From Hormiphora californensis (taxonomy: Eukaryota; Animalia; Ctenophora): a DNA stretch of 64,000 bases. The translations under genes were made by a program, and so were the position numbers. The stretch covers positions 1,798,001 through 1,862,000 of the forward strand of contig CM035354.1 in assembly GCA_020137815.1 (NCBI GenBank). Reading direction: 5' to 3'. Of this stretch, positions 5,601 through 54,914 are shown piece by piece. Below the pieces are notes generated by a model. That model searched no databases, was not told the DNA's origin, and saw only the letters and a program-made list of their open reading frames with translations. Within the stretch, counting starts at the first letter, position 1. The number at the start of each line of letters is the position of its first letter.

Positions 5601-5708
5601 ACCTGATACACAATGTCAGGAGTTAATTTGTCATATATCAAATATCAATAGTGAATAGCGTGTAAACTTGTATTTTTTTAGAAAAGCCAAAAAAACGGAA
5701 CCATTTAA

Positions 5709-7100
5709 GGGTACGCTAACCAAAATTTTTTTTCGAGTGCAGGGAAATCTCTCACCGTAGGGTTGTAGGCCATGCCAAGGAGACCTCAAATATGCAATTT
5801 GAGCTCTCAAGTCGAATTCATATTTTTGCTACAGCTGCTTGAAAAATGAACTCAAAATAAGTTTTTGGCATCTTAAAAATACATTTGTAAAGATAGGATC
5901 ATAAAAATTTGTGGATTTGAAGAGGACAAAGAGGTGAGTAGCCACAAAAAATTTTTTTGAAATCCGAGCTGATTTTCGGTCCTGAGATGGATTTCTTTTT
6001 TTTTGACTTTAACGCCATATTTGGCCAAGTTCCGAAAATATGTGAAAGCTGTAAATTGGTCAAAAGTTGCGTCTAACGATTACCTAAGTGGCCATAAATT
6101 TTGGGCGTGTCCTTATTTAAGATAAGCTGTACAGAGTTTTTTTTCTGAAAGCCGTCATTTCAGAAATAAATAAATTCCCTGTATCTCAAAAACGGCTGAT
6201 CGTAGAGACCTGAGACTATGCTTAAACGATTCAGAAGGTCCGATTTTAGGGGGGTCTTCTGAGAGACATTTTGCTCCTACTTCAACCGTTTTTGCTGTAA
6301 TTGCGAAAAACAAAAACCCATCTTCGCCATCGTGGATTTTTTGTGATTTTGTTTTTGGTGATTATAGGGACCCATATGGACCAAATAGTGAAGGAATTAG
6401 CTTGTTACATATTTTTCCATAGTTTCGGTCCTTCCTTAGCTAAAATTCCCTAATTACAGGATATTGGAGTTTAGCTTTTGCCCTTTTCATAGAATTTGTT
6501 TTTCGCAATTACAGCAAAAACGGTTGAAGTAAGAGCAAAATGTCTCTCAGAAGACCCCCCCCAAAATCGGACCTTCTAAATCGTTTAAGAATAGTCTCAG
6601 GTCTCTACGATCAGCCGTTTTTGAGATACAGGGAATTTATTTATTTCTGAAATGACGGCTTTCAGAAAAAAAACTCTGTACAGCTTATCTTAAATAAGGA
6701 CACGCCCAAAATTTATGGCCACTTAGGTAATCGTTAGACGCAACTTTTGACCAATTTACAGCTTTCACATATTTTCGGAACTTGGCCAAATATGGCGTTA
6801 AAGTCAAAAAAAAGAAATCCATCTCAGGACCGAAAATCAGCTTGGATTTCAAAAAAATTTTTTGTGGCTACTCACCTCTTTGTCCTCTTCAAATCCACAA
6901 ATTTTTATGATCCTATCTTTACAAATGTATTTTTAAGATGCCAAAAACTTATTTTGAGTTCATTTTTCAAGCAGCTGTAGCAAAAATATGAATTCGACTT
7001 GAGAGCTCAAATTGCATATTTGAGGTCTCCTTGGCATGGCCTACAACCCTACGGTGAGAGATTTCCCTCTTTTCGAAAAAAATTTTTGGTTAGCGTACCC
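5709..7100. mobile_element. Non-autonomous foldback DNA transposon with TTAA TSD, Kolobok-like
   Basis: TTAA|GGGTACGCTAACC ... GGTTAGCGTACCC|TTAA; ~600-bp near-perfect inverted arms (5709-~6314, ~6495-7100); RR..YY ends rather than piggyBac CCY..RGG. Confidence 0.9.
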
Positions 7101-35843: not shown

Positions 35844-36702
35844 CTACAAGCGGCCGTGTGTGGAGGGGCTACCGGTCATTCGGCTACCGGTCATTCGGTT
35901 GAATGCAAACACAGTTACCACACACAAGAGAAACACTGAGAGGTGTACTACCAGAGCTCCACTCTGTGCTGAACTGTTTGGATCCGTTAAAATGGGCCCA
36001 ACTACAGATTCACCGAGCTGTTCACATGACAGCGTTACCTGTCCAACTCCACTGACCCCTCCAACGCTGATAACCCTCTCAATAATGTCATGACGGGTTG
36101 AGAAGGTAAAGTTTCGGCTCTCAAACTCCAGGCCTTCAGCGGGGGCAGTAACTATCAGGGACACCTGGGGTTGTCCCCTGGCTGACGCACCGCAGGGCAA
36201 ACGGGTAAATCCGGACTCCGATAATACTATTAGGAATATAGCCTGAGAGTCGAGGACTGTTATGGACACAGTTGTTCGAGGGTTCATTGTAATGGAAATC
36301 GCAGGTGTAAACCTCACCTGGATTACCCTTAGGAACGGTTACATTGGCCACAAAGAACACGTTATCCACTGATCCACCCCAGTCCAACAACAATTCCTCT
36401 TTGTTACCATAGTAACCATCAAGATCTCGTTCTACCTCCTCCTGGGTAGAAAACACCGAGTGGTAGCTAAGGTAAAAGCCGACTGTGTAATCAATGTCCT
36501 TGATGATTTTGACAGAACTCCCGTCCCCTAAATCCCTATAAAGTGTAAATCCTCGGGAACGTTGTCGAGCACACCGGAAGTTTACTGAGCCATCGACTGC
36601 GGAAATGCGGGCATATGGAGGGGCAATGGCATCGGTTTTTAGGTCAGGGTATTCTTTTGCAAGTGCAAGGGAAGTCAGTTGGAGGATTATTAAGGGAATC
36701 AT
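35844..36702 (-). CDS. Secreted or membrane-anchored protein with two putative Ig-like domains; 1-bp frameshift near 36187
   Basis: Signal peptide; VNFRC...GEVYTC; removing one base gives LRC-SARGQPQVSL...LSC; hydrophobic C-terminus. Confidence 0.55.
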
Positions 36703-36936
36703 GTCATACCTCCCTGCGAAAAGAAAGGGCTATTATTGAGCTCAGATATATGGAAGTAAACAACATTTACTATCATAAGTTAAAACAATATCAAAGATCA
36801 TTATACAAATTCATTGTCTCTTAAAAACATCTCAAAAATGTTAACATAAATGTTGTCTGCGAATATAGATTGCCGGTTGTAGTTGGAACATGACACAGTC
36901 ATAAACCTCTCAGAAAAACTGAAACACTAATTCACA

Positions 36937-38411
36937 CTAAATAGGTTGCCAGTCTGCTGGTGAACTAAAAACACCGCTCACCATCTCCTCTGTAACATCC
37001 TCCAAAGTTGCAGGGTTCCACCGCGGATTATTGTCCTTGTCCACCAACAACGCCCTGACACCCTCCTGAAACTCACCCAAGGCAAAGGTCGGATCCGCAA
37101 TCTGGACCTCCATCCTGAGACACTCCGTGAAGTCGAGGGAGCGAGAGAGGTGTTGAGTTCGGTGGGCAATACAAAGGGCAATCGGTGACATGGTTGAGAG
37201 TGTCTTGTCAGTTGCTGCAGCGAATTCAGTGGCGCTAGCCTGTAATCGGGAGCGGATCTCCAGAACCGATGGTGCGGAGAAACACTTTGAAATCTCCAGC
37301 AGATTGGACTGGAATGTCAGGTCTGGGATATCATCAGGCTGAAAAGACTCCAAACATTCTACTACATTGTGATTCATATGTGGAAGCTACACAACAGACA
37401 AGTCAGCAATGATCTCCAGATACAGTTTAAAGACAAAGGTCGGACAGGGATCAAGGCAGTCGTACCACCAATGACCAAGACAGGATCGAGTGCAAACCAA
37501 ACACTCTATGACGAGTCCTTTGCGGTCATAGGACCAAAGCTATGGAACAGTATCCCAGCAGAGCTCAGCCGCATTGACAAGTTCGAGAGTTTCAAACGGG
37601 CCCTTACGAAGCACTTCAAGGAAATCCCGGATGAACCTCCTGTTCAAGGTTACAGTAGGAGGAACAACAACTCAGTGCTGGACTGGCTGAGAGATAAACC
37701 TGAAGGGTGTTCGCACGAGGCGATGACCCTGTTGCAGCAGAGGATCTGATCTTCTACAGCTTCGAACAACCTAAAGTGACTAAAGTGAGTGAGCTCACCC
37801 TCACTTCCACATGAAAGTATACCCTCCCGGAGTTCGGAAATTCGGTCCGTGAAGTGCGTCACAAAATCCAAATGAAGTGCATCAGCACCCCTGGTTCTGT
37901 TGCCAGTTAGGGCGAGATACATACCAACATCACCGAGCCTGGATAGGAAATACGTGGCACCCGCATCTGGGTAAAATCCAATCTTGGTTTCAGGCATGGC
38001 AAACATAGATCGAGGAGTGCAGACTCTGTATCGGCTGTTACAACACAACCCCATTCCTCCACCCATCACAATACCATCACCAAGGGATATAATCGGTTTA
38101 AGGAACATTTTCAATCGGTGGTGCATCTGATTTTCACGGGCCATGTTTCCTAAATTCACTATATCTCCACCAGCACAGAAAGCCTTACCACCCGCTCCCT
38201 CCATAAGGATAATGTCCACACTTTCATCCTTTTCAATTTCTCCCAACCTCGCTATGATTCTCTCCACCATTTCATGATTGTAAGAGTTCAGGGCTTTCGG
38301 CCGGTTCAGCAATATTGTAGCTACCCGGCCGTGGTGAGCGAATTCTGCCACATGCGATAGAGATCGTGAAGGAGTGGATACGAGACGACGTAATTGTCGA
38401 GTGAGTAACAT
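36937..38411 (-). pseudogene. HIBCH: HIBCH paralogue disrupted by a LINE fragment
   Basis: Near-identical to 38878-39930 but split at 37365-37791. Confidence 0.8.
37365..37791 (+). mobile_element. 5'-truncated CR1/L2-type LINE 3' end
   Basis: Absent from the paralogous copy; encodes an ORF2-type C-terminus SFAVIGPKLWNSIP..SFKRAL..IPDEPP; repeated CTAAAGTGA tail. Confidence 0.85.
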
Positions 38412-38816
38412 AACGCAGCTCTGAAAAAGAGTCAGGCGAATAAAATTGTGCTAGAATTAACATAAAAGGACACATTTCCCACGGTCATAATAGCTCCACC
38501 CCATGGTAAGATGGAGACACCAAATGTGGAGGTTATGAAGATCATTTCGAAATCAATGGGAGGATAAGTATGAACATCATGTCACATTGCTTCCTCCTGC
38601 AGAAAGAAAGGATTATCATTGTGCTCAGATTTGGATAAAATAAACATTTCACTATCATACGTTCATTTAATGTTAAAACAATATCAAAGCTCATTATACA
38701 AATTCATTCTCTCTTAAAAACATATCAAAACGTTAGATAAATGTTGTCTGCGAATATAGATTGCCGGTTGTAGTTGGAACATGACACAGTCATAAACCTC
38801 TAAGAAGAACTGGAGA

Positions 38817-38880
38817 ACACTAATTCACACTATAATTCACACTATAATTCACACTATAATTCACACTATAATTCACACTA
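38817..38880. repeat. 12-bp tandem repeat x5 at the HIBCH stop codon
   Basis: taattcacacta repeated; single copy in the paralogue. Confidence 0.85.
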
Positions 38881-39930
38881 AATAGGTTGCCAGTCTGCTG
38901 GTGCACTAAAAACACCGCTCACCATCTCCTCTGTAACCTCCTCCAAAGTTGCAGGGTTCCACCTTGGATTATTGTCCTTGTCCACCAACAACGCCCTGAC
39001 ACCCTCCTGAAACTCTCCCAAGGCAAAGGTCGGATCCGCAATCTGGACCTCCATCCTGAGACACTCCGTAAAGTCGAGGGAGCGAGAGAGGTGTTGAGTT
39101 CGGTGGGCTATACAAAGGGCAATCGGTGACATGGTTGATACAGTCTTGTCAGTTGCTGCAGCGAATTCAGTGTCGCTAGCCTGTAATCGGGAGCGGATCT
39201 CCAGAACCGATGGTGCAGAGAAACACTTTGAAATCTCCAGCAGATTGGACTGGAATGTCAGCTTCGGGATATCATCATCATCAGGCTGAAAAGACTCCAA
39301 ACATTCCACTAGCTCACCCTCACTTCCACATGCAAGTATACCCTCCCTGAGTTGGGGAATTCGGTCCGTGAAGTGCGTCACAAAATCCAAGTGAAGGGCA
39401 TCAGCACCCCTGGTTCTGTTGCCAGTCAGGGCGAGGTACATACCAACATCACCAAGCCTGGATAGGAAATACGTGGCACCCGCATCTGGGTAAAATCCAA
39501 TCTTGGTTTCAGGCATGGCAAACATAGATCGAGGAGTGCCGACTCTGTATCGGCTGTTACAACACAACCCCATTCCTCCACCCATCACAATACCATCACA
39601 AAGGGAGACAATCGGTTTGGGGAAGGTTTTCACTCGGTGGTGCATCTGATTTTCACGGGCCATGTTTCCTAAATTCACTATATCTCCACCAGCACAGAAA
39701 GCCTTACCACCCGCTCCCTCCATAAGGACAATGTCCACACTTTCATCCTTTTCAATTTCTTCCAACCTCGCTATGACTCTCTCCACCATTTCATGATTGT
39801 AAGAGTTCAGGGCTTTAGGCCGGTTCAGCAATATTGTAGCTACCCGGCCGTGCTGAGAGAATTCTGCCACATGCGATAGAGATCGTGAAGGAGTGGATAC
39901 GAGACGACGAAATTGTCGCGTGAGTAACAT
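38878..39930 (-). CDS. HIBCH: 3-hydroxyisobutyryl-CoA hydrolase paralogue (350 aa)
   Basis: LNRPKALN, AFCAGGDI, GIVMGGG, AMPETKIGFYPDAG, EGVRALLVDKDNNPRW. Confidence 0.92.
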   Translation of the reverse strand: MLLTRQFRRLVSTPSRSLSHVAEFSQHGRVATILLNRPKALNSYNHEMVERVIARLEEIEKDESVDIVLMEGAGGKAFCAGGDIVNLGNMARENQMHHRVKTFPKPIVSLCDGIVMGGGMGLCCNSRYRVGTPRSMFAMPETKIGFYPDAGATYFLSRLGDVGMYLALTGNRTRGADALHLDFVTHFTDRIPQLREGILACGSEGELVECLESFQPDDDDIPKLTFQSNLLEISKCFSAPSVLEIRSRLQASDTEFAAATDKTVSTMSPIALCIAHRTQHLSRSLDFTECLRMEVQIADPTFALGEFQEGVRALLVDKDNNPRWNPATLEEVTEEMVSGVFSAPADWQPI

Positions 39931-40173
39931 AACGCAGCTCTGAAAAAGAGGAAAGCGAATGATATTATGCTAGCATTATACACGTCTTGTTGAACACGTG
40001 TTTTACAAAACTATTAGTAACTTTAGAATGTAAAAACAATAGTTAACCTCGTATATTCATACAGACAACATCAAGAAAAATATATCGCACCTAACTCAAG
40101 AAATAAATTATGATTCCGAACAAAACCTTAAAAAACATCACTCTTCCCAAAATTCCAGTTCACTGGAAAGTGT

Positions 40174-41277
40174 TTATAGTGGTTTCCATTGCTTGCCAGA
40201 AGACTCGAAGTATCGATCTACCATCTCCTGTGTTACTTCCTCCACAGTGCCGGGTTTCCAGGCCGGACTATTGTCTTTGTCAACAAGCAGCGCACGGACA
40301 CCCTCTGTAAACTCTCCACTTCGATAAATTTCCGAAGCTGCAACGAACTCCCGTGCAAAGCACTCCTCGTAAGAGAAATTACCCCCCTCGGAGAGTAATT
40401 TGTGTGTGACAACGAGTGACCGAGGGGACATTCGCCGGAGAGTTTTCAGCAACTTTACAGCAAACTCTGATCCGTCTTCTTCTAATCGGGAGAAGATTTC
40501 AAGAACAGACGGAGCGGAGAAACAGTGCTTGATAAGATCAACCTGGGGTCCGAGGGTAAATGGGCCAGGAATTGGACTCTCGTGGCTCGCTAAAACCTCT
40601 TCAATGGTGTCCTCATCAGATGCCATGATAGCAGATTTTAGAGCAGGCAATTTCTCCATCTCGGTGTAATGGGTGGCTATCCCGAGGTGTTTTAGATCCG
40701 CTCCCTTAATCCGATGTCCAGTTAATCCGAGGAACATTCCATAGGGTTGCTCCAATCTTGACAAAAAATAAGATCCGCCAACATCGGGGAAATAACCAAT
40801 AGCGGTTTCTGGCATTGCATAAAGAGTACGCTCCGTTGCCACCCTGTATTTTCCGTGTAGAGACAAACCGACACCACCGCCCATTGTAATACCATGGATA
40901 AGTGAGACGTATGGTTTAGAGTAGGTCCCAATCATATAATTCATCTGGAATTCATCGTGGAAAAATGTCAGGGCAGCAGAGTCGTCTGCCGCCGATGTCG
41001 TTATTGATACAACGTCGCCACCAGCACAGAAAGATTTCGCGCCCGATCCCTCTACGCACACAACGCCGACACTCGGATCAGCATGCCAGGTCATCAGGTT
41101 GTCCCTTATTTGGTGAACCATATTTAAGTTAATAGCATTTAGAGCTTTTGGACGGTCCAGGGTAATCAATCCGACCTTTCCTTCGCGTGTAAAGTGGACC
41201 TCCTTTGCTGCAGTTGCCATACTTCGCATCGACAGGATGACTGGTTTGGCGAGTTTCGATGTAATTCGACAAGCCAT
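40174..41277 (-). CDS. HIBCH: 3-hydroxyisobutyryl-CoA hydrolase, canonical copy with a mitochondrial-type presequence
   Basis: LDRPKALNA, FFHDEF, GITMGGGVGLS, AMPETAIGYFPDVG; first ATG at 41277. Confidence 0.93.
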   Translation of the reverse strand: MACRITSKLAKPVILSMRSMATAAKEVHFTREGKVGLITLDRPKALNAINLNMVHQIRDNLMTWHADPSVGVVCVEGSGAKSFCAGGDVVSITTSAADDSAALTFFHDEFQMNYMIGTYSKPYVSLIHGITMGGGVGLSLHGKYRVATERTLYAMPETAIGYFPDVGGSYFLSRLEQPYGMFLGLTGHRIKGADLKHLGIATHYTEMEKLPALKSAIMASDEDTIEEVLASHESPIPGPFTLGPQVDLIKHCFSAPSVLEIFSRLEEDGSEFAVKLLKTLRRMSPRSLVVTHKLLSEGGNFSYEECFAREFVAASEIYRSGEFTEGVRALLVDKDNSPAWKPGTVEEVTQEMVDRYFESSGKQWKPL

Positions 41278-41717
41278 ACGATTCTGACAAGCAGATCCCT
41301 GAATTATGTGAATCAATAGTTAACATTAAAGCCTTAGAATAGCGAGAAAGGTGATAAAAAGCATCAGAAAACGGAAAACTTGACGGGTTTTTAAAAATGA
41401 ATTCGATTTTTCGCCTTTTTTGAGCTGCGCTTGCTTGGTTCGAAACGCGCGCACGCGTACCTGGGACCTGCAGCGCATAACATTTTTTGTAAACCTGAGA
41501 TTTCGGTTCCAAGATTTTAAAAATACCCTTTTGGACTTTTTCAACTTTTGGCGTTTTGTTGCTATTTGTCTCTCTGGCCATCGATAGGCCAGAGAGGGTT
41601 CCAGACGTTAAGATCAACAAGATCTCTTCTTTATTTTCTTTTTCTAGTTGAGCACACTCAACGAAACGTCAAAGTTCTTCCCGGAAATTTCCGCGGAAAG
41701 GACTTATTATTCATACA

Positions 41718-41756
41718 TCAAACTTTTCAACACTACTTTAAACAAATTAATTTGAG
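41718..41756 (+). other. Spliced-leader-like sequence at the 5' end of a retroposon, no GT donor
   Basis: TCAAACTTTTCAACACTACTTTAAACAAATTAATTTGAG; identical to the reverse complement of 54948-54986; matches my recollection of the Pleurobrachia SL (needs verification). Confidence 0.75.
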
Positions 41757-41890
41757 ATATGTCCTCAGGATGTTGAGACCGCCCGTAGGGGCAGGCAGAA
41801 GTTATGACGGAGAAACTCAATACCTCTGATGCAGATGCTGATCCACTGGAATGCTGGGGTTTGTCGATGATGGAAAAACTTCGTTGTGCA

Positions 41891-42425
41891 ACCGCGGAAG
41901 AAGCAACTCTTGATCGCAAGTTGAATTTGGTTATATTTGGGCTGCCAGAAACTACGGCAAGGGCTACTGAGCATGAAGTTCAGGATATCTTTGGAGAGCT
42001 CAATGAAAAACCAGTCATATCTTCTACAAAGCGTATTGGCGAAAAGACTGATAACCGACCGAGACCAGTAATTGTTACACTTGAAAGGAGGGAAACTTTG
42101 TTACAACTTCTAAGAAAAGCAAAACAGCTCCGAGATTCAGAGAAATTCTCCTCGGTGTTTCTCTCCCCCGACCTAACACCGGAGGAGCAGCGAGAGCGGA
42201 AAACTCTCGTTGATACAGTGAAAGGACTGAGGCGAGACAATCCGAATGGACGATACTGGGTTAGCAGGGGGGTAATTAAATGTGGCTGACCTGCTACATG
42301 TAATTTGTACTCTAAAGAGACTTCAAAAGGAACCTTATGACTATCAATTTAGCCCACAAAAAGGGGCAGTATATGTTGTATTTTATCCAATGTATACATT
42401 TTAGATTTAATAATAATAATAATAA
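41891..42425 (+). mobile_element. 5'-truncated retrocopy of element A inserted into element A
   Basis: Matches 43009-~43546 except one substitution seen and tail length; TSD TCGTTGTGCA at 41881-41890 and 42426-42435. Confidence 0.9.
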
Positions 42426-43553
42426 TCGTTGTGCAGTAGAGGACGTTTTTTATATCAAGAACGGGCTCAAACAACCAAGTGAACAACAGGTTGATGGAGT
42501 ATTGTCCAAGTTATTGGATTCTAGTTTGTATGATGATCCTGAGCAGTATATTGAGGACGCACTGCCGAAAGACTCCGAAATGAGAAAGTATAATGTTGAT
42601 CGTTTCATGGCTTTCACCGAGAACCTCTCTCGTCATATTTTTCGGATAGTGAGAGAAATAGGACCAGTTATGAAGGAGAAACGTCTGTATGCAACTGCCC
42701 GAATGAAAGAACGCCTGGAACTAGAGGAGTGTAATCAGAAGCTCAAGGAGGTACAAGAAGAGCTTGGCACTTTTAAGGAAGAAATCGACAAACATCGGGT
42801 ATCAAGGATTGAACTGCAAGAGAAGCTGATTGAAGCACAAAATACTTTGATTGAAGTACAAGGTCGAAAACTTAGTTCAGTGTCAGAGTCTGTTCAGAAG
42901 CAATTGCAGGGCTACTCCAAGGTGCTTGTACAGAATTGCTCTGCAGCTATTACACCATCCCGCCTCCAAGCAGCATTGAAGAAAGCGACTGTACCCCATC
43001 CAAGTACAACCGCGGAAGAAGCAACTCTTGATCGCAAGTTGAATTTGGTTATATTTGGGCTGCCAGAAACTACGGCAAGGGCTACTGAGCATGAAGTTCA
43101 GGATATCTTTGGAGAGCTCAATGAAAAACCAGTCATATCTTCTACAAAGCGTATTGGCGAAAAGACTGATAACCGACCGAGACCAGTAATTGTTACACTT
43201 GAAAGGAGGGAAACTTTGTTACAACTTCTAAGAAAAGCAAAACAGCTCCGAGATTCAGAGAAATTCTCCTCGGTGTTTCTCTCCCCCGACCTAACACCGG
43301 AGGAGCAGCGAGAGCGGAAAACTCTCGTTGATACAGTGAAAGGACTGAGGCGAGACAATCCGAATGGACGATACTGGGTTAGCAGGGGGGTAATTAAATG
43401 TGGCTGACCTGCTACATGTAATTTGTACTCTAAAGAGACTTCAAAAGGAACCTTATGACTATCAGTTTAGCCCACAAAAAGGGGCAGTATATGTTGTATT
43501 TTATCCAATGTATACATTTTAGATTTAATAATAATAATAATAATAATCATACA

Positions 43554-46500
43554 CCCAACAAGTTGAGAATCCTCAACAATCACTCACCACCCCGATCACA
43601 TGATCACGCGATCCAAAGCCAAGGCACGTCTCTCACCAGTAGCCCTTCGGCCGTCATCATCCCTACACAGACCGTTCCACCCACAAGCTCACCTCAGATC
43701 GTTTGTCGTATCCCCTGACGACTCTCTATCCTCCGACAGCTCAGGATCGGCTTCAGACGGTGACCATGATTATGCTACTCCCAACACCAGCATCACAAGG
43801 GGAACACCCATTTCAAACTCAACGCCCATAAGCAGATTGATAAATGAGTCGAGGTGGTTTACAGAAGAGAAGTGTGGGCAATGCTATGAAACACTGCCGT
43901 CTTATGAGAATGCCAAATGTGAAGCATGTCATGAACCGTTTCACCAGACCTGTATGACACCGGTTAATCAATCTGAACAAATGGTTCATACACCTGTAGT
44001 GTGGTATTGTACTGCCTGTTTCAACCTAAACAGATTAGTTTGGAAGACTACAGAGCCTTGTAAAGCTAACTGTTGGGGACCGTTGAATGGAGAAGAGCTC
44101 ATCGAGGCTTTCTCTAACATCTCTATGATCAGTCAGGGATGGTCAACCAACCTGTTCAAAGTTCCCTTCGGTCAAGTGGGCCGTTCTTTCATTGATGAAC
44201 TTACCAGACTGGCAGGTCTCTTCAGTGATAGGGAAGACACCAGAGGATGGTCCTTATCTGCTTTGGTTATAGCCCCACTGCTGCTACTCCAGAAGCCGGC
44301 CAGGAAGTCGAAGAATCGGGAGCATGCTCAAGTTCTCAAACGACGCCTAAAACTGTGGCACGATGGAGACTTTGAGGCGTTGGTTCGGGAAGCCAAGGTT
44401 ATCCAGAAACCATTGAAGCACAATGTCCCATCTTCGGAACTCTGCACTAAGAGGTTTGTGGACCTAACCAGAGAGGGGAGAGTTACAGAGGCAACTGCAT
44501 GGTTGAACCCCGAGAGGCATACAACTGGAGTTAAGGACTGCAACGACGAGTCCGTATTGTCTGATCTGCTAGAGAAACACCCAAAGGGTCAGCCTGCCAA
44601 CAGTACCCTGGCGAGACAGGGGCCAACAGATGCAGTATTGGAAGTCACCTTTGACGGTATGAATGGGCAAACGATTTTCTCATGCGGCAAAAGCCTCAAA
44701 GGTAGTGGAGGACCAAGTGGACTAGATGCAACAGGAATACACCGAATCCTTTGCTCCAGGAAATTCAAGAAATCACCCCCAGCACTGTGCACAGCGCTTG
44801 CAAAAGCAGCTCGGACCCTAGCCACAGAGCAGGTTGACTTGAAAGCTTTAGACATTTTCTGTGCAAGTCGCCTCATGCCCCTTGCCAAGCCTGGAGGTGG
44901 TACGCGTCCTATTGGAATAGGAGAGTGTTTCAGACGTGTTATGACCAAGGCCATTATTCGCACCATCAAGTCGGACATCAAGAGTGCGGCTGGAAAGGTT
45001 CAACTAGCTGCAGGTCAGTTAGGAGGTGTGGAGGCAGCGATCCATGCACTGAGTGAGAAGTTTGAATCTGAGGAATGTGAAGGTGTACTGTTGTTGGACG
45101 CCCAGAACGCGTTTAACAATCTCAACCGGAAAATGGCCCTGAAGAACACTACCTTCTACTGTCCGGACCTCTCCACATTTCTGACCAACATCTACGGGAA
45201 GCCAAGGGCACTTTTTGTTGGTGAAAAGCTACTGTGGAGCTCTGAAGGAGCCACACAGGGAGATCCAGCTGCAATGGACTTCTACTCAATTGGCATACTA
45301 AGACTGATCGAGCTTGCGGAGACGCCAGATACAACACAAGTGTGGTATGCAGATGATGCAAACAATGCAGGGAAGCTCACGGGCTTGTTAGAGTGGTTTG
45401 ACAAGGTGACAACCTTTGGCCCTAGTTTCGGATATTTTGTAAACCCTGCAAAGTGCCATCTTATCGTGAAACCTGAACTGCTCGACCATGCAAAGCGGCT
45501 GTTTGGAGATACTGGGGTTCAAATCACTGCTGAAGGTGCTCGTCACCTAGGTGCTTCCATAGGATCTGAGACCTTCAAGCAAACATTTGTTTCTGCTGCA
45601 GTTTCCAAATGGTGCATTGAGCTGGAAAATCTTGTGGCTATTGCCAAAGCCCATCCTCATTTGGCGTACAGCAACTTTGTGAGAAGCTTCCGATTCAAGT
45701 GGGCCTTTCTCCAGCGAACAGTTCCAGACATCAGTGATCTGTTTGATCCGCTTGAACACACCATCCGTTCACAGTTGATTCCATGTCTGGTGGGCCGTCA
45801 AGTGTCCGACCTAGAACGGGAGATACTGGCACTCCCCTCTGGGAAAGGTGGAATGGGTATTGAGAACCCCGTCAAAACCTCTGACAGATCATACAGCAAC
45901 TCCCGAGCATTGACGAAGCCCCTTGTTGATTTGATACTATGCCGTAACGAAGAAGAAATAGAAATGGCTCTAGTGGAGAAGAATGCAAGAGAGGCAAGGA
46001 ACAAGATAGCAAAGGAGAATGAGGACCACCACTCAGACACTCTCAAAGAGTTACTCACTAGAATCACATGCCCAAAGCTAGTGAGATGTCTAGAGCTCGC
46101 TGGAGAGGCCGGAGCATCTGTATGGCTCACGGCAACACCCTACCCTCACCTGGGCTTCGAACTGAATCAATTGGAATTCGTCGACTCAGTGGCACTGCGA
46201 TACGGGTTTGAGGTCAAAGATTTGGGCGCGACATGCGTATGTGGAAAGCCAAACAATGCGGACCATACCTTGTCCTGTTCAACCGGGGGCTATTCCATCC
46301 TCCGTCACGACAACATCAGGGACCTAATGGCGGAGATATGCTCGTATGCGGGCCTCAAAGGTGTGGAAACAGAGAAGCTACTTCTCCCTTGTCCGGACGG
46401 CATACACTTTCACCCTTCGGCAAACACAGCCCCTGATGCAAGGATGGATGTGGTCGCACTTGACATGTGGCGAAAAATGCAGCTGGCTCATATGGATGTG

Positions 46501-47110
46501 CGAATTTTCCATGCCAATTCGCCCTCCTATATCGACACGCCCCTCGACCAACTCTACCGAAGAAACGAGGCTAGCAAGAAGCAGTCGTACGGAAAGCGTG
46601 TAAGAGAAGTTGAAGGGGGTGCCTTCTCTCCGCTGGTTATGAATACAGCAGGCGGGATAGCCAACGAGTTCCAAAAGGTGCTGAAGACTCTCTCACACCG
46701 AGTCTCCACAAGAACCGGAGAACCGTACAATGAAGTTATGGCGCACCTGAGGACGAGGCTACGATTCTCCCTCCTGAGATCATGCCTTATTGCTTTAAGA
46801 GGAAATCGGAGGAAGATCGCTATCACTAGTCTAACAAATACTGAACTGGTGACCTGAGGAAGAGAGGAATGAGAAGAACTTGAGGATCCGAAGATAAATT
46901 GATCCGAGGATGAATTGATTTATTGTTTTGTTCTTTCTTCTTTCTCGATTTTTTTTCTCTGCTGCGGTTCACACACTTTAAAAATTTTCCTCCGTTTTTA
47001 AATTTTTGTCTCTGGTGCAGGTGTCTCCTGAGTCCTGTTGTCTCCGGTCTGCTCAGTGCTCAGTGCTCATTGCTCAGTCGACAGTCCTGAAGCATCTTTA
47101 TCTTTTTACA
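43554..47110 (+). mobile_element. RLE-type (CRE-like) retrotransposon body; 5' UTR probably continues left of 41717; 3' end not defined
   Basis: Intact 1085-aa ORF with a T-rich 3' region; no TSD found. Confidence 0.7.
43600..46857 (+). CDS. CRE-clade-like non-LTR retrotransposon polyprotein (PHD finger, RT, zinc knuckle, restriction-like endonuclease)
   Basis: C4HC3 PHD; RPIGIGE, GGVEAAIH, LDAQNAFN, EGATQGDP, WYADD; CVCG..H..C, RHDNIRD, ARMDV..DVRI, EASKKQSY, FSPLVMNTAGG. Confidence 0.93.
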   Translation: MITRSKAKARLSPVALRPSSSLHRPFHPQAHLRSFVVSPDDSLSSDSSGSASDGDHDYATPNTSITRGTPISNSTPISRLINESRWFTEEKCGQCYETLPSYENAKCEACHEPFHQTCMTPVNQSEQMVHTPVVWYCTACFNLNRLVWKTTEPCKANCWGPLNGEELIEAFSNISMISQGWSTNLFKVPFGQVGRSFIDELTRLAGLFSDREDTRGWSLSALVIAPLLLLQKPARKSKNREHAQVLKRRLKLWHDGDFEALVREAKVIQKPLKHNVPSSELCTKRFVDLTREGRVTEATAWLNPERHTTGVKDCNDESVLSDLLEKHPKGQPANSTLARQGPTDAVLEVTFDGMNGQTIFSCGKSLKGSGGPSGLDATGIHRILCSRKFKKSPPALCTALAKAARTLATEQVDLKALDIFCASRLMPLAKPGGGTRPIGIGECFRRVMTKAIIRTIKSDIKSAAGKVQLAAGQLGGVEAAIHALSEKFESEECEGVLLLDAQNAFNNLNRKMALKNTTFYCPDLSTFLTNIYGKPRALFVGEKLLWSSEGATQGDPAAMDFYSIGILRLIELAETPDTTQVWYADDANNAGKLTGLLEWFDKVTTFGPSFGYFVNPAKCHLIVKPELLDHAKRLFGDTGVQITAEGARHLGASIGSETFKQTFVSAAVSKWCIELENLVAIAKAHPHLAYSNFVRSFRFKWAFLQRTVPDISDLFDPLEHTIRSQLIPCLVGRQVSDLEREILALPSGKGGMGIENPVKTSDRSYSNSRALTKPLVDLILCRNEEEIEMALVEKNAREARNKIAKENEDHHSDTLKELLTRITCPKLVRCLELAGEAGASVWLTATPYPHLGFELNQLEFVDSVALRYGFEVKDLGATCVCGKPNNADHTLSCSTGGYSILRHDNIRDLMAEICSYAGLKGVETEKLLLPCPDGIHFHPSANTAPDARMDVVALDMWRKMQLAHMDVRIFHANSPSYIDTPLDQLYRRNEASKKQSYGKRVREVEGGAFSPLVMNTAGGIANEFQKVLKTLSHRVSTRTGEPYNEVMAHLRTRLRFSLLRSCLIALRGNRRKIAITSLTNTELVT

Positions 47111-47456
47111 ATTTACAGAAATATCATCTCACCAGGGACGGCTCAGCAAGTCCCTGGGTAGCTGGGGCCATGGGCAAATGCTCCGTTCAGTGAACTGTGA
47201 AACCCCCATGAGCGGGGTGATCCGTCCTAGGACGCAGGCTCTGCGGGGTCAGGGGTGTAGGGGCCAACCAAGGTTCATGACCCCGTGAGCTGAGCTCACG
47301 ACTAGAGTTGTGGCCTTGCCCATGGGCCATGGTGACTCGAGAGCTCTGTTGACAATTACATTTCAAAATCGAAATTCGATCATTAGTCTAGAAAGAGATG
47401 CCACTTAGATTAAATGCATTACAAATTCCTATTCCTAACTCATTTTCTCAACAGTA

Positions 47457-53706: not shown

Positions 53707-54894
53707 GAAGTTTCAAACTTTCATCAACTACAACGTAAAACTATTTATTGAGTGATGGGAACGAAAGATAACGAGGGCGATAACCCTACGAATGAACGAT
53801 TGATAAAAGCAGTGAACGACCATGTTATGGAAATTATGAGAATGGACTACGAGGATACCTCGGAAGAGATAACTTTTGAACCGCAGCAAGTAACGAATAA
53901 CTACAACTTTATCAAACAATTCCCCGAGTCAAAACTTGGTTCACCGAGTGACGATATATGCTCTCACTTTAGACGTATTCTCAAGACCTTATCTAAAGAG
54001 GAAATCATTGACACTACATGTAAAACTTTTTTGTCCGGTGTGAAACTTCTGAAATGTGCAATGCATAGCCTTGATGAGGTTAGTAGTACGAGGAAACTAG
54101 AGGAGGAGTTTCGTAAGTGCAAAGAAGAACTTGACCGCCACCGTGTTACGGTGATTGAGCTGCAGCAGACCGTCATCAACAATCAACAGCAGCAACTCAG
54201 TTCAATGACAAACTCAGTACAGAAGGTGAAAGCTTACTCTACTGTTCTTGCTCAAAACTGTGCTGCAGTCTCTCCGGTGGTGAGAAAATATTCTCAAGAA
54301 CCAACTCACGCACCATTGTCCGAGAGGGATAAAAATCTTGTAATATTCGGTATACCAGAAACAACTGACCGCCTGACTAAGAACAGTGTCGATGGTTTGT
54401 TTGCCGAGCTGAATGAAAAACCGAAAGTAAATTCGATCAAACGTATCGGCGAGAGAAACGAGAAGGGCCCTCGACCTCTATTGGTTTCTTTGGAAAAACG
54501 AGCAACACTTATGGCGCTGCTGAAAAAGTCACGTCAGCTGAAGAACTCGGAACACTTCTCAGCTGTTTACTTTTCACCAGACCTAACTCCAGTCCAAATA
54601 AAGGAGCGTAAAGCCCTTATCACCACCTTGAAAAAGCTCCGCTTAGAGGACCCGGGCGGAAAATATTATATCAAAAACAATATAATCCAAGTAGGATAGG
54701 ACTATTATTCCCACTACGTGATCTATCATAATCTTGTTGCAAAGCTAGCCGCTTTTGGAGCGAGGGCTGTTGAGGATGAAAGAGGATGTGTTGATGAATC
54801 TGACTCCCAGCAGCAGAACTTGTGCTGAGCCGTATATCGGACAGTTAAAAAGCGGACTATAAATTTACATTTTGTATTTGTATTTGTATTTGTA
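53707..54894 (+). mobile_element. ORF1-only LINE-like retroposon B with variant SL-like 5' end and (TTTGTA)4 tail
   Basis: SL-like 53707-53752 ends in TTGAG 2 nt before the ATG; ORF homologous to element A; tail at 54871-54894; TSD uncertain (possibly AAGT). Confidence 0.75.
53755..54699 (+). CDS. LINE ORF1-like protein (coiled coil plus RRM/CTD-like region)
   Basis: ERDKNLVIFGIPE, KRIGE..GPRPLLV, VYFSPDLT; paralogous to the ORF of element A. Confidence 0.85.
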   Translation: MGTKDNEGDNPTNERLIKAVNDHVMEIMRMDYEDTSEEITFEPQQVTNNYNFIKQFPESKLGSPSDDICSHFRRILKTLSKEEIIDTTCKTFLSGVKLLKCAMHSLDEVSSTRKLEEEFRKCKEELDRHRVTVIELQQTVINNQQQQLSSMTNSVQKVKAYSTVLAQNCAAVSPVVRKYSQEPTHAPLSERDKNLVIFGIPETTDRLTKNSVDGLFAELNEKPKVNSIKRIGERNEKGPRPLLVSLEKRATLMALLKKSRQLKNSEHFSAVYFSPDLTPVQIKERKALITTLKKLRLEDPGGKYYIKNNIIQVG

Positions 54895-54914
54895 AGTCAA
54901 AACACGGTGGTTGG

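Follow-up and report, generated by a model that had tools for sequence, protein, structure and literature searches.

Does the interrupted reading frame of a small retroelement in the ctenophore Hormiphora californensis record an element that copied itself into its own locus, and what kind of element is it? The locus lies in a window of 64,000 nucleotides (contig CM035354.1, positions 1,798,001 to 1,862,000, forward strand), which is the whole stretch of DNA analysed and to which all coordinates refer. Self-alignment of the window revealed a 541-nt repeat with 99.6% identity between 41886-42426 and 43004-43544, within which the insert proper (41891-42426, 536 nt) differs from the host unit solely by an A at 42347 against a G at 43465 (99.8% identity). 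The nested copy (41891..42425, plus strand) is 5′-truncated and consists of the coding region for the RRM and C-terminal domain of ORF1, the 3′ UTR, and an (AAT)6 tail (42409..42426, plus strand; the tail of the host unit is (AAT)7), the last T of which is common to the tail and the duplication that follows. The two copies of this 10-bp target site duplication (TSD), TCGTTGTGCA, lie to the left (41881..41890) and right (42426..42435) of the insert on the plus strand and are the only occurrences of that sequence on either strand of the window; a direct repeat of at least 10 bases surrounded two random window sites in 0.04% of 200,000 trials, with a slide of 2 allowed. At the 5′ junction, insert and target share a 2-nt microhomology, CA (41889-41890 = 43007-43008), and four of five bases match from 41886; the available text of PMC2912911 reports 5′ microhomology for nearly 80% of 5′-truncated L1 insertions. 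Target duplication, intact 3′ tail, 5′ truncation, and microhomology, the features of target-primed reverse transcription (TPRT) of a non-LTR element, were thus all found. The preliminary description had reported a 3′ duplicate of ∼535 bp with an AAT tail, a 10-bp TSD, CA microhomology, and one substitution, all of which the sequence bears out; its reading of these hallmarks as recent TPRT of an RT-less unit from an active family is supported by the TSD, tail, and truncation, and by the ∼13-16 copies, other 3′ flanks, and empty sites described below. Taken alone, the nested insertion is a routine event, and it marks the family as recently active.

Deleting 41891-42435, which covers the insert plus one copy of the duplication (545 nt), restores an ORF of 352 codons, as had been claimed, and uninterrupted 352-aa proteins exist independently (P0001, 98% identical, and P0033, in the P0001 cluster). 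The 5′ junction of the insert falls between codons 29 and 30 of ORF1, in frame, and the insert supplies its own stop; the outcome is a 161-aa chimeric ORF (41804..42289, plus strand) in which 29 N-terminal residues precede the insert-encoded RRM and C-terminal domain and the long helix (positions 83-200 in the predicted model) is absent, in agreement with the earlier account of a 161-aa ORF lacking the coiled coil. The label “in frame” given in that account applies to the 5′ junction only; the insertion as a whole does not preserve the frame because insert and duplication together measure 545 nt, no multiple of three, and a frame match at one junction is a one-in-three chance that carries no signal. 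Selection for an in-frame fusion was considered and rejected, as no evidence for it was found, and the fusion likely arose by chance. A second chimeric ORF of 356 aa (42337..43407, plus strand), which begins at an ATG in the 3′ UTR of the insert and reads via the AAT tail into the host ORF, is probably incidental. The nested insertion likely inactivates the host copy.

To identify the donor, the insert and host unit were compared with sequencing contigs (Logan) from five of 22 runs, leaving out X7-X20, with small shares, and X21 and X22, with next to none; such contigs show presence, not absence, and rare variants get dropped. The uninterrupted form of ORF1 was present as DNA in four of four runs compared, at depths of 589 (X1) and 576 (X2) vs. 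56 and 53 for the single-copy flank. Body-to-flank depth ratios of 14.8 (X1), 12.8 (X2), and 16.0 (X3), rough values from single contigs, correspond to roughly 13-16 near-identical copies, and the tail was followed by other 3′ flanks in X2, X5, and X3. In X1, family contigs of high depth had zero differences to the insert over the covered interval 41889-42417. Over 42347, zero-difference contigs reached depths of 717, 778, 340, and 2136, near family depth, and the A at this position is therefore the family-majority base, with the proviso that the 99% filter on contigs would hide short G-bearing ones at the 43465 position. The G of the host copy at 43465 is the minority base at this single informative site; the host copy also differs from family contigs at 42867 in all four runs compared and, in X1, shows one further difference each in 41729-41848 and 42426-42771. 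The insert does not share the private variant of its host, a weak indication resting on one site. The simplest interpretation is a donor copy at another genomic site, with the template likely coming from another of the ∼15 near-identical copies.

The principal alternative, and an unlikely one, is true self-insertion, in which the unit’s own RNA was reverse transcribed into its own locus and the G at 43465 is a later change or an assembly error. The 99.8% identity between insert and host would fit this, but identity to the family majority is equally high, the only informative base sides with the family (although that base may have mutated since the insertion or may be misassembled), and ∼15 donors are possible. 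Landing within the same family by chance is rare, with 0.003-0.01 same-family nestings expected (for 15-30 copies and an assumed 110 Mb); a chance of 0.3-1% is small when a single family is considered, but not when many families are scanned. To our knowledge, there is no general rule of local hopping for non-LTR elements, which counts against self-insertion. The setting, a three-level nest next to a divergent promoter region, speaks for self-insertion, as do the rarity of chance landings in the family and the tendency of dinoflagellate retrogenes to land near their parents, as given in the available text of a review (PMC6050394), and some target or local bias may have contributed. The preliminary description’s “copy of itself” and its suggestion of local or cis-preferential reinsertion are, accordingly, not supported by the base at 42347, where the insert follows the family majority and not the host, or by the number of potential donors.

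A chimeric join of repeat copies during assembly is a further, very unlikely, source of the nested structure, and the contigs themselves provide its support. No contig spanned the nested 5′ junction in any of the three runs of sample S1 (X1, X2, and X3; Logan contigs), the depth of bin 41860-41894 (141.4, 116.1, and 77.0, respectively) was exactly the contribution of the family contig starting at 41889, and deep family contigs continued unbroken through both nested-junction positions. The gap is noteworthy, as a junction of the outer element was retained at a depth of 30 in X2. However, contigs drop rare variants, and a thin link between repeats some twenty times deeper could have been pruned during assembly, which may account for the missing junction. 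A misjoin would hardly yield a 10-bp duplication, a junction right after the tail, another tail length, and a base difference, and this sequence signature argues against one. The nested event is very probably real and not a misassembly. Template switching within a single event, whereby the RT, while inserting the host unit itself, moved onto the 3′ end of another RNA, copied 536 nt of it, and resumed 10 nt downstream of its departure point so as to mimic a TSD, draws on the template jumping known for non-LTR RTs (available text of PMC2912911) and on the four of five bases at the 5′ junction that match the element’s own sequence, but requires two switches and a precise return where an ordinary second insertion requires none, and is highly improbable.

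The host unit matters more than the nested event. It measures 1.29 kb and comprises a leader, a short 5′ UTR, ORF1 (41804..43407, plus strand; 352 codons once the insert is removed, with the break after codon 29), a 3′ UTR with an (AAT)7 tail (43408..43547, plus strand; tail at 43527-43547), and a 7-bp TSD, TCATACA, present on the plus strand on the left (41711..41717) and right (43547..43553) of the whole unit. The first 39 nt (41718..41756, plus strand) are a ctenophore spliced leader, identical to the 3′-terminal 39 nt of the H. californensis trans-spliced leader given in the available text of PMC8527503. Neither the GT donor nor the Sm site that follow the leader in spliced-leader RNA genes was found, the sequence from 41757 onward being ATATG, and the leader of the host unit is therefore not a leader gene, because AT and not a GT donor comes next. 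Among leader loose ends behind 41756, the consensus of 13-24 contigs started with CT, not GT, in all four runs; many genomic leader copies are thus unlike leader genes. A contig in X1 (41729-41848) joins the leader to the 5′ UTR at a depth of 856 vs. 825 for the body, with only 28 letters on the leader side, below the 31-letter bridging rule, which suggests that nearly every family copy has the full length and a leader at its head. The unit’s empty site was recovered as well, since in X1, X3, and X5 contigs pass directly from 41717 to sequence that matches the window from 43554 on; with its TSDs and empty sites the unit belongs to a dispersed, multi-copy family, as judged roughly from depth. 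No ORF2 lies between ORF1 and the tail and TSD, with 140 nt from stop to TSD. The host unit is best read as a non-autonomous LINE similar to HAL1 and Ag-Sponge, with a 5′ end likely derived from host trans-splicing. The preliminary description of the unit mentioned neither the spliced-leader start nor the location inside a second, polymorphic retroelement.

ORF1 was named by its fold alone, as no Pfam family matched at its cut-off and a sequence search of the PDB returned no match. The predicted model (P0001, alignment A1) contains a long helix (83-200), an RRM, and a C-terminal domain; the top 11 Foldseek matches were all human L1 ORF1p (best E 2.7e-6), and the fold of the predicted model matches PDB 2yko. 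With a pTM of 0.31 the model supports a domain-level reading, on which ORF1 is a LINE-1-type ORF1p (coiled coil, RRM, and C-terminal domain) and a predicted RNA-binding protein. The single-sequence model of the 134-aa part encoded by the insert was poor (pLDDT 53.5) and was left unused. A profile of ORF1 recruited 8,786 representatives at E ≤0.001, indicating a wide ORF1 family without names, and one homolog is labelled Pleurobrachia bachei, which together with the leader makes a cydippid ctenophore the most likely host. The only longer homolog, from a weak search, is the gene model P0083, in which the 3′ half of the ORF1 family is fused to a PSF3 (GINS) gene; P0083 probably reflects the insertion of an element upstream of a host gene.

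A second, diverged ORF1-only unit lies at 53708..54895 (plus strand) and consists of a leader variant, an ORF, a 3′ UTR, and a (TATTTG)n tail. Its 314-aa ORF1 (53755-54699, plus strand) is 46% identical over 220 aa to that of the first unit, the candidate leader variant (42 nt, 53711-53752, plus strand) is followed by TGATG at 53753 with no GT donor, and a possible 4-bp duplication, GTCA, is weak. One scan of JGI contigs gave 106 pattern matches that reduced to three loci, L001, L002, and L003, all of which may derive from RNA, and their leaders would then be uninformative on genomic heads. L002 is headed by the 42-nt leader variant of the second unit and L003 by 26 nt of the main leader, and the head of L001 is merely a leader-like GAG; L001 and L002 have no second ORF and end in microsatellite tails 206-221 nt past the stop, and L003 ends at the stop. 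L002 carries 18 extra bases ending in TAG between leader and TGATG, whereas the leader of the second unit abuts TGATG directly. On sequence grounds this would fit attachment of one leader at two AG acceptors, although a plain deletion between the AGs would look alike. A literature search with two leader fragments matched only PMC8527503, for the main leader, in its available text. Values of dN/dS were 0.14-0.23 in six of ten pairs, involving the second unit and L001-L003, and four pairs with the first unit were saturated; the ORF is thus under purifying selection in the testable clade. The tails across units and loci were (AAT)n, (TATTTG)n, and (GATATT)n, none of them poly(A), and folding of the 3′ UTRs of four units revealed no shared signal (z −2.9 to 0.4, mononucleotide shuffles).

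The notion that the units arose as processed pseudogenes from a domesticated ORF1-like gene of the host (cf. L1TD1 of mammals) and form no self-propagating family is extremely doubtful, for although leader-headed intronless copies resemble retrocopies of a trans-spliced mRNA and the ORF is under purifying selection, the three tail types include no poly(A), ∼15 near-identical copies occupy differing sites, and many diverged subfamilies have open ORFs.

Near the second unit, a further exact 39-nt copy of the leader was observed at 54986-54948 (minus strand), followed by CTGAAGA with no GT donor, and the second unit seems to have landed immediately downstream of this copy. A short stem-loop followed by GAAAC (54947-54915, minus strand) recalls the minimal hammerhead core of Penelope-like elements; this candidate was rejected, as Rfam gave it no support and it folded no better than shuffles (z 0.59). 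At gathering scores, Rfam had no match in the window, and just two chance matches were seen at 53.3-55.3 kb.

The first unit and its insert are the inner layers of a three-layered nest, in which a polymorphic RT element contains the 1.29-kb ORF1 unit in its 5′ UTR and the ORF1 unit contains the 536-nt 3′ fragment in ORF1. The outer element is a single-ORF non-LTR retrotransposon (41500..46961, plus strand) with an ORF of 1085 aa (43600-46857, plus strand) that carries a PHD-like finger, an RT (RVT_1, E 5.5e-9), and CCHC and restriction-like endonuclease motifs (residues 879-997). A single ORF, an RT, and a C-terminal CCHC and restriction-like endonuclease are features of the CRE clade, and all were found, the CCHC and endonuclease by motif patterns; we take the outer element to be CRE-like on this basis. 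The block 41500-46961 is absent from another allele, with joints 41499->46968 in X1 and X2 and 41498->46961 in X6, and in X2 a joint 41668->43585 represents a form of the outer element without the ORF1 unit. In X2, the empty allele (depth 36.5) coexisted with the filled 5′ junction (crossed by a 58-nt contig, depth 30), which suggests heterozygosity for the outer element. The depth of the outer element climbs several-fold toward its 3′ end, reflecting 5′-truncated copies, whereas the depth of the ORF1 unit does not climb in this way. ORF1 and the downstream RT ORF do not form one two-ORF LINE, a possibility rejected on the tail and TSD between them, the empty site, and the differing depth profiles; equally, the leader was rejected as the target of the outer element because the empty site lacks it.

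The outer block is flanked by enoyl-CoA hydratase-family and SRP14 genes in divergent orientation. Its 5′ end (41500-41530) resembles the sequence just past the insertion site (46960-46990), CGGTTC...TTTAAAAAT, with no clean TSD, and this resemblance may point to a target preference in promoter regions. The 5′ UTR of the outer element folds much better than shuffles in 41600-41717 (z −5.1) and 43554-43602 (z −3.4), and a similar GTTGAG...CTCAAC hairpin is found on either side of the insertion site of the ORF1 unit. Elsewhere in the window, tandem intronless enoyl-CoA hydratase/isomerase (ECH_2) genes occupy 36671-41316 (minus strand) and include partial recent duplicates (95% and 84% identity), 5703-6314 and 7106-6495 form an inverted repeat of 613 bp with 98% identity, and a GC-rich region upstream of SRP14 (47130-47345) has inverted GGGCCATGGGCAA arms and many indels between samples.

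The nested structure is probably a truncated copy of a leader-headed, ORF1-only retroposon in a member of the same family, made by TPRT with the RT borrowed from a LINE and with another copy as donor. In such a cycle a copy would be transcribed, probably by read-through, since there is no promoter-sized 5′ UTR; host trans-splicing would then join a capped leader to an AG located at, or close to, the 5′ end of the unit. ORF1p would be made and would likely coat its own RNA, and the RT-endonuclease of another, autonomous LINE, presumably of the CR1/L2 group to judge from the microsatellite tail, would copy the RNA starting from the tail. For the nested copy, reverse transcription would have halted after 536 nt and joined the target via the 2-nt microhomology. 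The leader relic left in the genome terminates in AG and could act as an acceptor, which would reset a read-through RNA to a capped, full-length, translatable one. We infer that the unit is trans-spliced and expressed; if trans-splicing does supply the 5′ end, a retroposon can dispense with a promoter or ribozyme. More tentatively, ctenophores might carry old and diverse ORF1-only retroposons of this promoterless kind, in which the 5′ end is rebuilt in each cycle by host trans-splicing and many genomic leader copies are the heads of such elements.

Several known systems bear on this proposal. CRE/SLACS/CZAR and NeSL elements insert into spliced-leader genes, and the present locus is similar in that leader sequence stands beside a retroelement and the outer element looks CRE-like, but differs in that the leader arrived with the ORF1 unit, as the empty site shows, and was not the target of the outer element. 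Compared with ordinary nested 5′-truncated LINE insertions, which share the TSD, microhomology, and truncation (available text of PMC2912911), the only difference is that target and insert in the ctenophore come from one low-copy family. In flatworms, 597 discarded leader loci were linked to mobile elements, mainly LTR and LINE (PMC12582326), and in Hydra, transcripts of transposable elements (TEs) are leader-capped, at ∼30% of TE Iso-Seq reads (PMC12220107); these cases are alike in that TE RNAs receive the leader, but the available text of neither study describes a defined leader-headed, ORF1-only family. Dinoflagellate retrogenes with relict spliced leaders also resemble the ctenophore unit, in that a genomic copy of a trans-spliced leader marks an RNA intermediate; according to the available text of PMC6050394, however, they are host genes with sometimes tandem relics, whereas the ctenophore unit belongs to a mobile family of many copies, in which the leader is single and its junction varies between copies. 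Among titles and the starts of abstracts, a scope that leaves outside most subscription papers, Repbase, and supplements, neither a published leader-headed ORF1-only family nor published ctenophore non-LTR elements were found.

The available text of PMC8527503 reports 718 genomic leader copies in H. californensis and 491 in M. leidyi, and the leader-headed unit would, if trans-splicing supplies its 5′ end, give a testable reading of many such copies in ctenophores: if the promoterless retroposon reading is true, many of the 718 and 491 would be retroelement heads and not leader genes. The closest counterparts are the ORF1-only non-autonomous LINEs HAL1 (L1-derived), Ag-Sponge (CR1-derived), and HeT-A (Jockey-derived), as described in the available text of PMC5786205 and PMC5753468. 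Like these, the host unit has one ORF1 protein, no RT, a LINE-type 3′ tail, target duplications, a 5′-truncated copy, and an ORF under selection in the testable clade, and three of four features of the HAL1/Ag-Sponge type were found, the fourth being ends from an identifiable autonomous LINE. Unlike them, its 5′ end is a host spliced leader, only 47 nt precede the ATG, and the host is a ctenophore; the unit would extend the short list of ORF1-only LINE derivatives (HeT-A, HAL1, and Ag-Sponge) to ctenophores.
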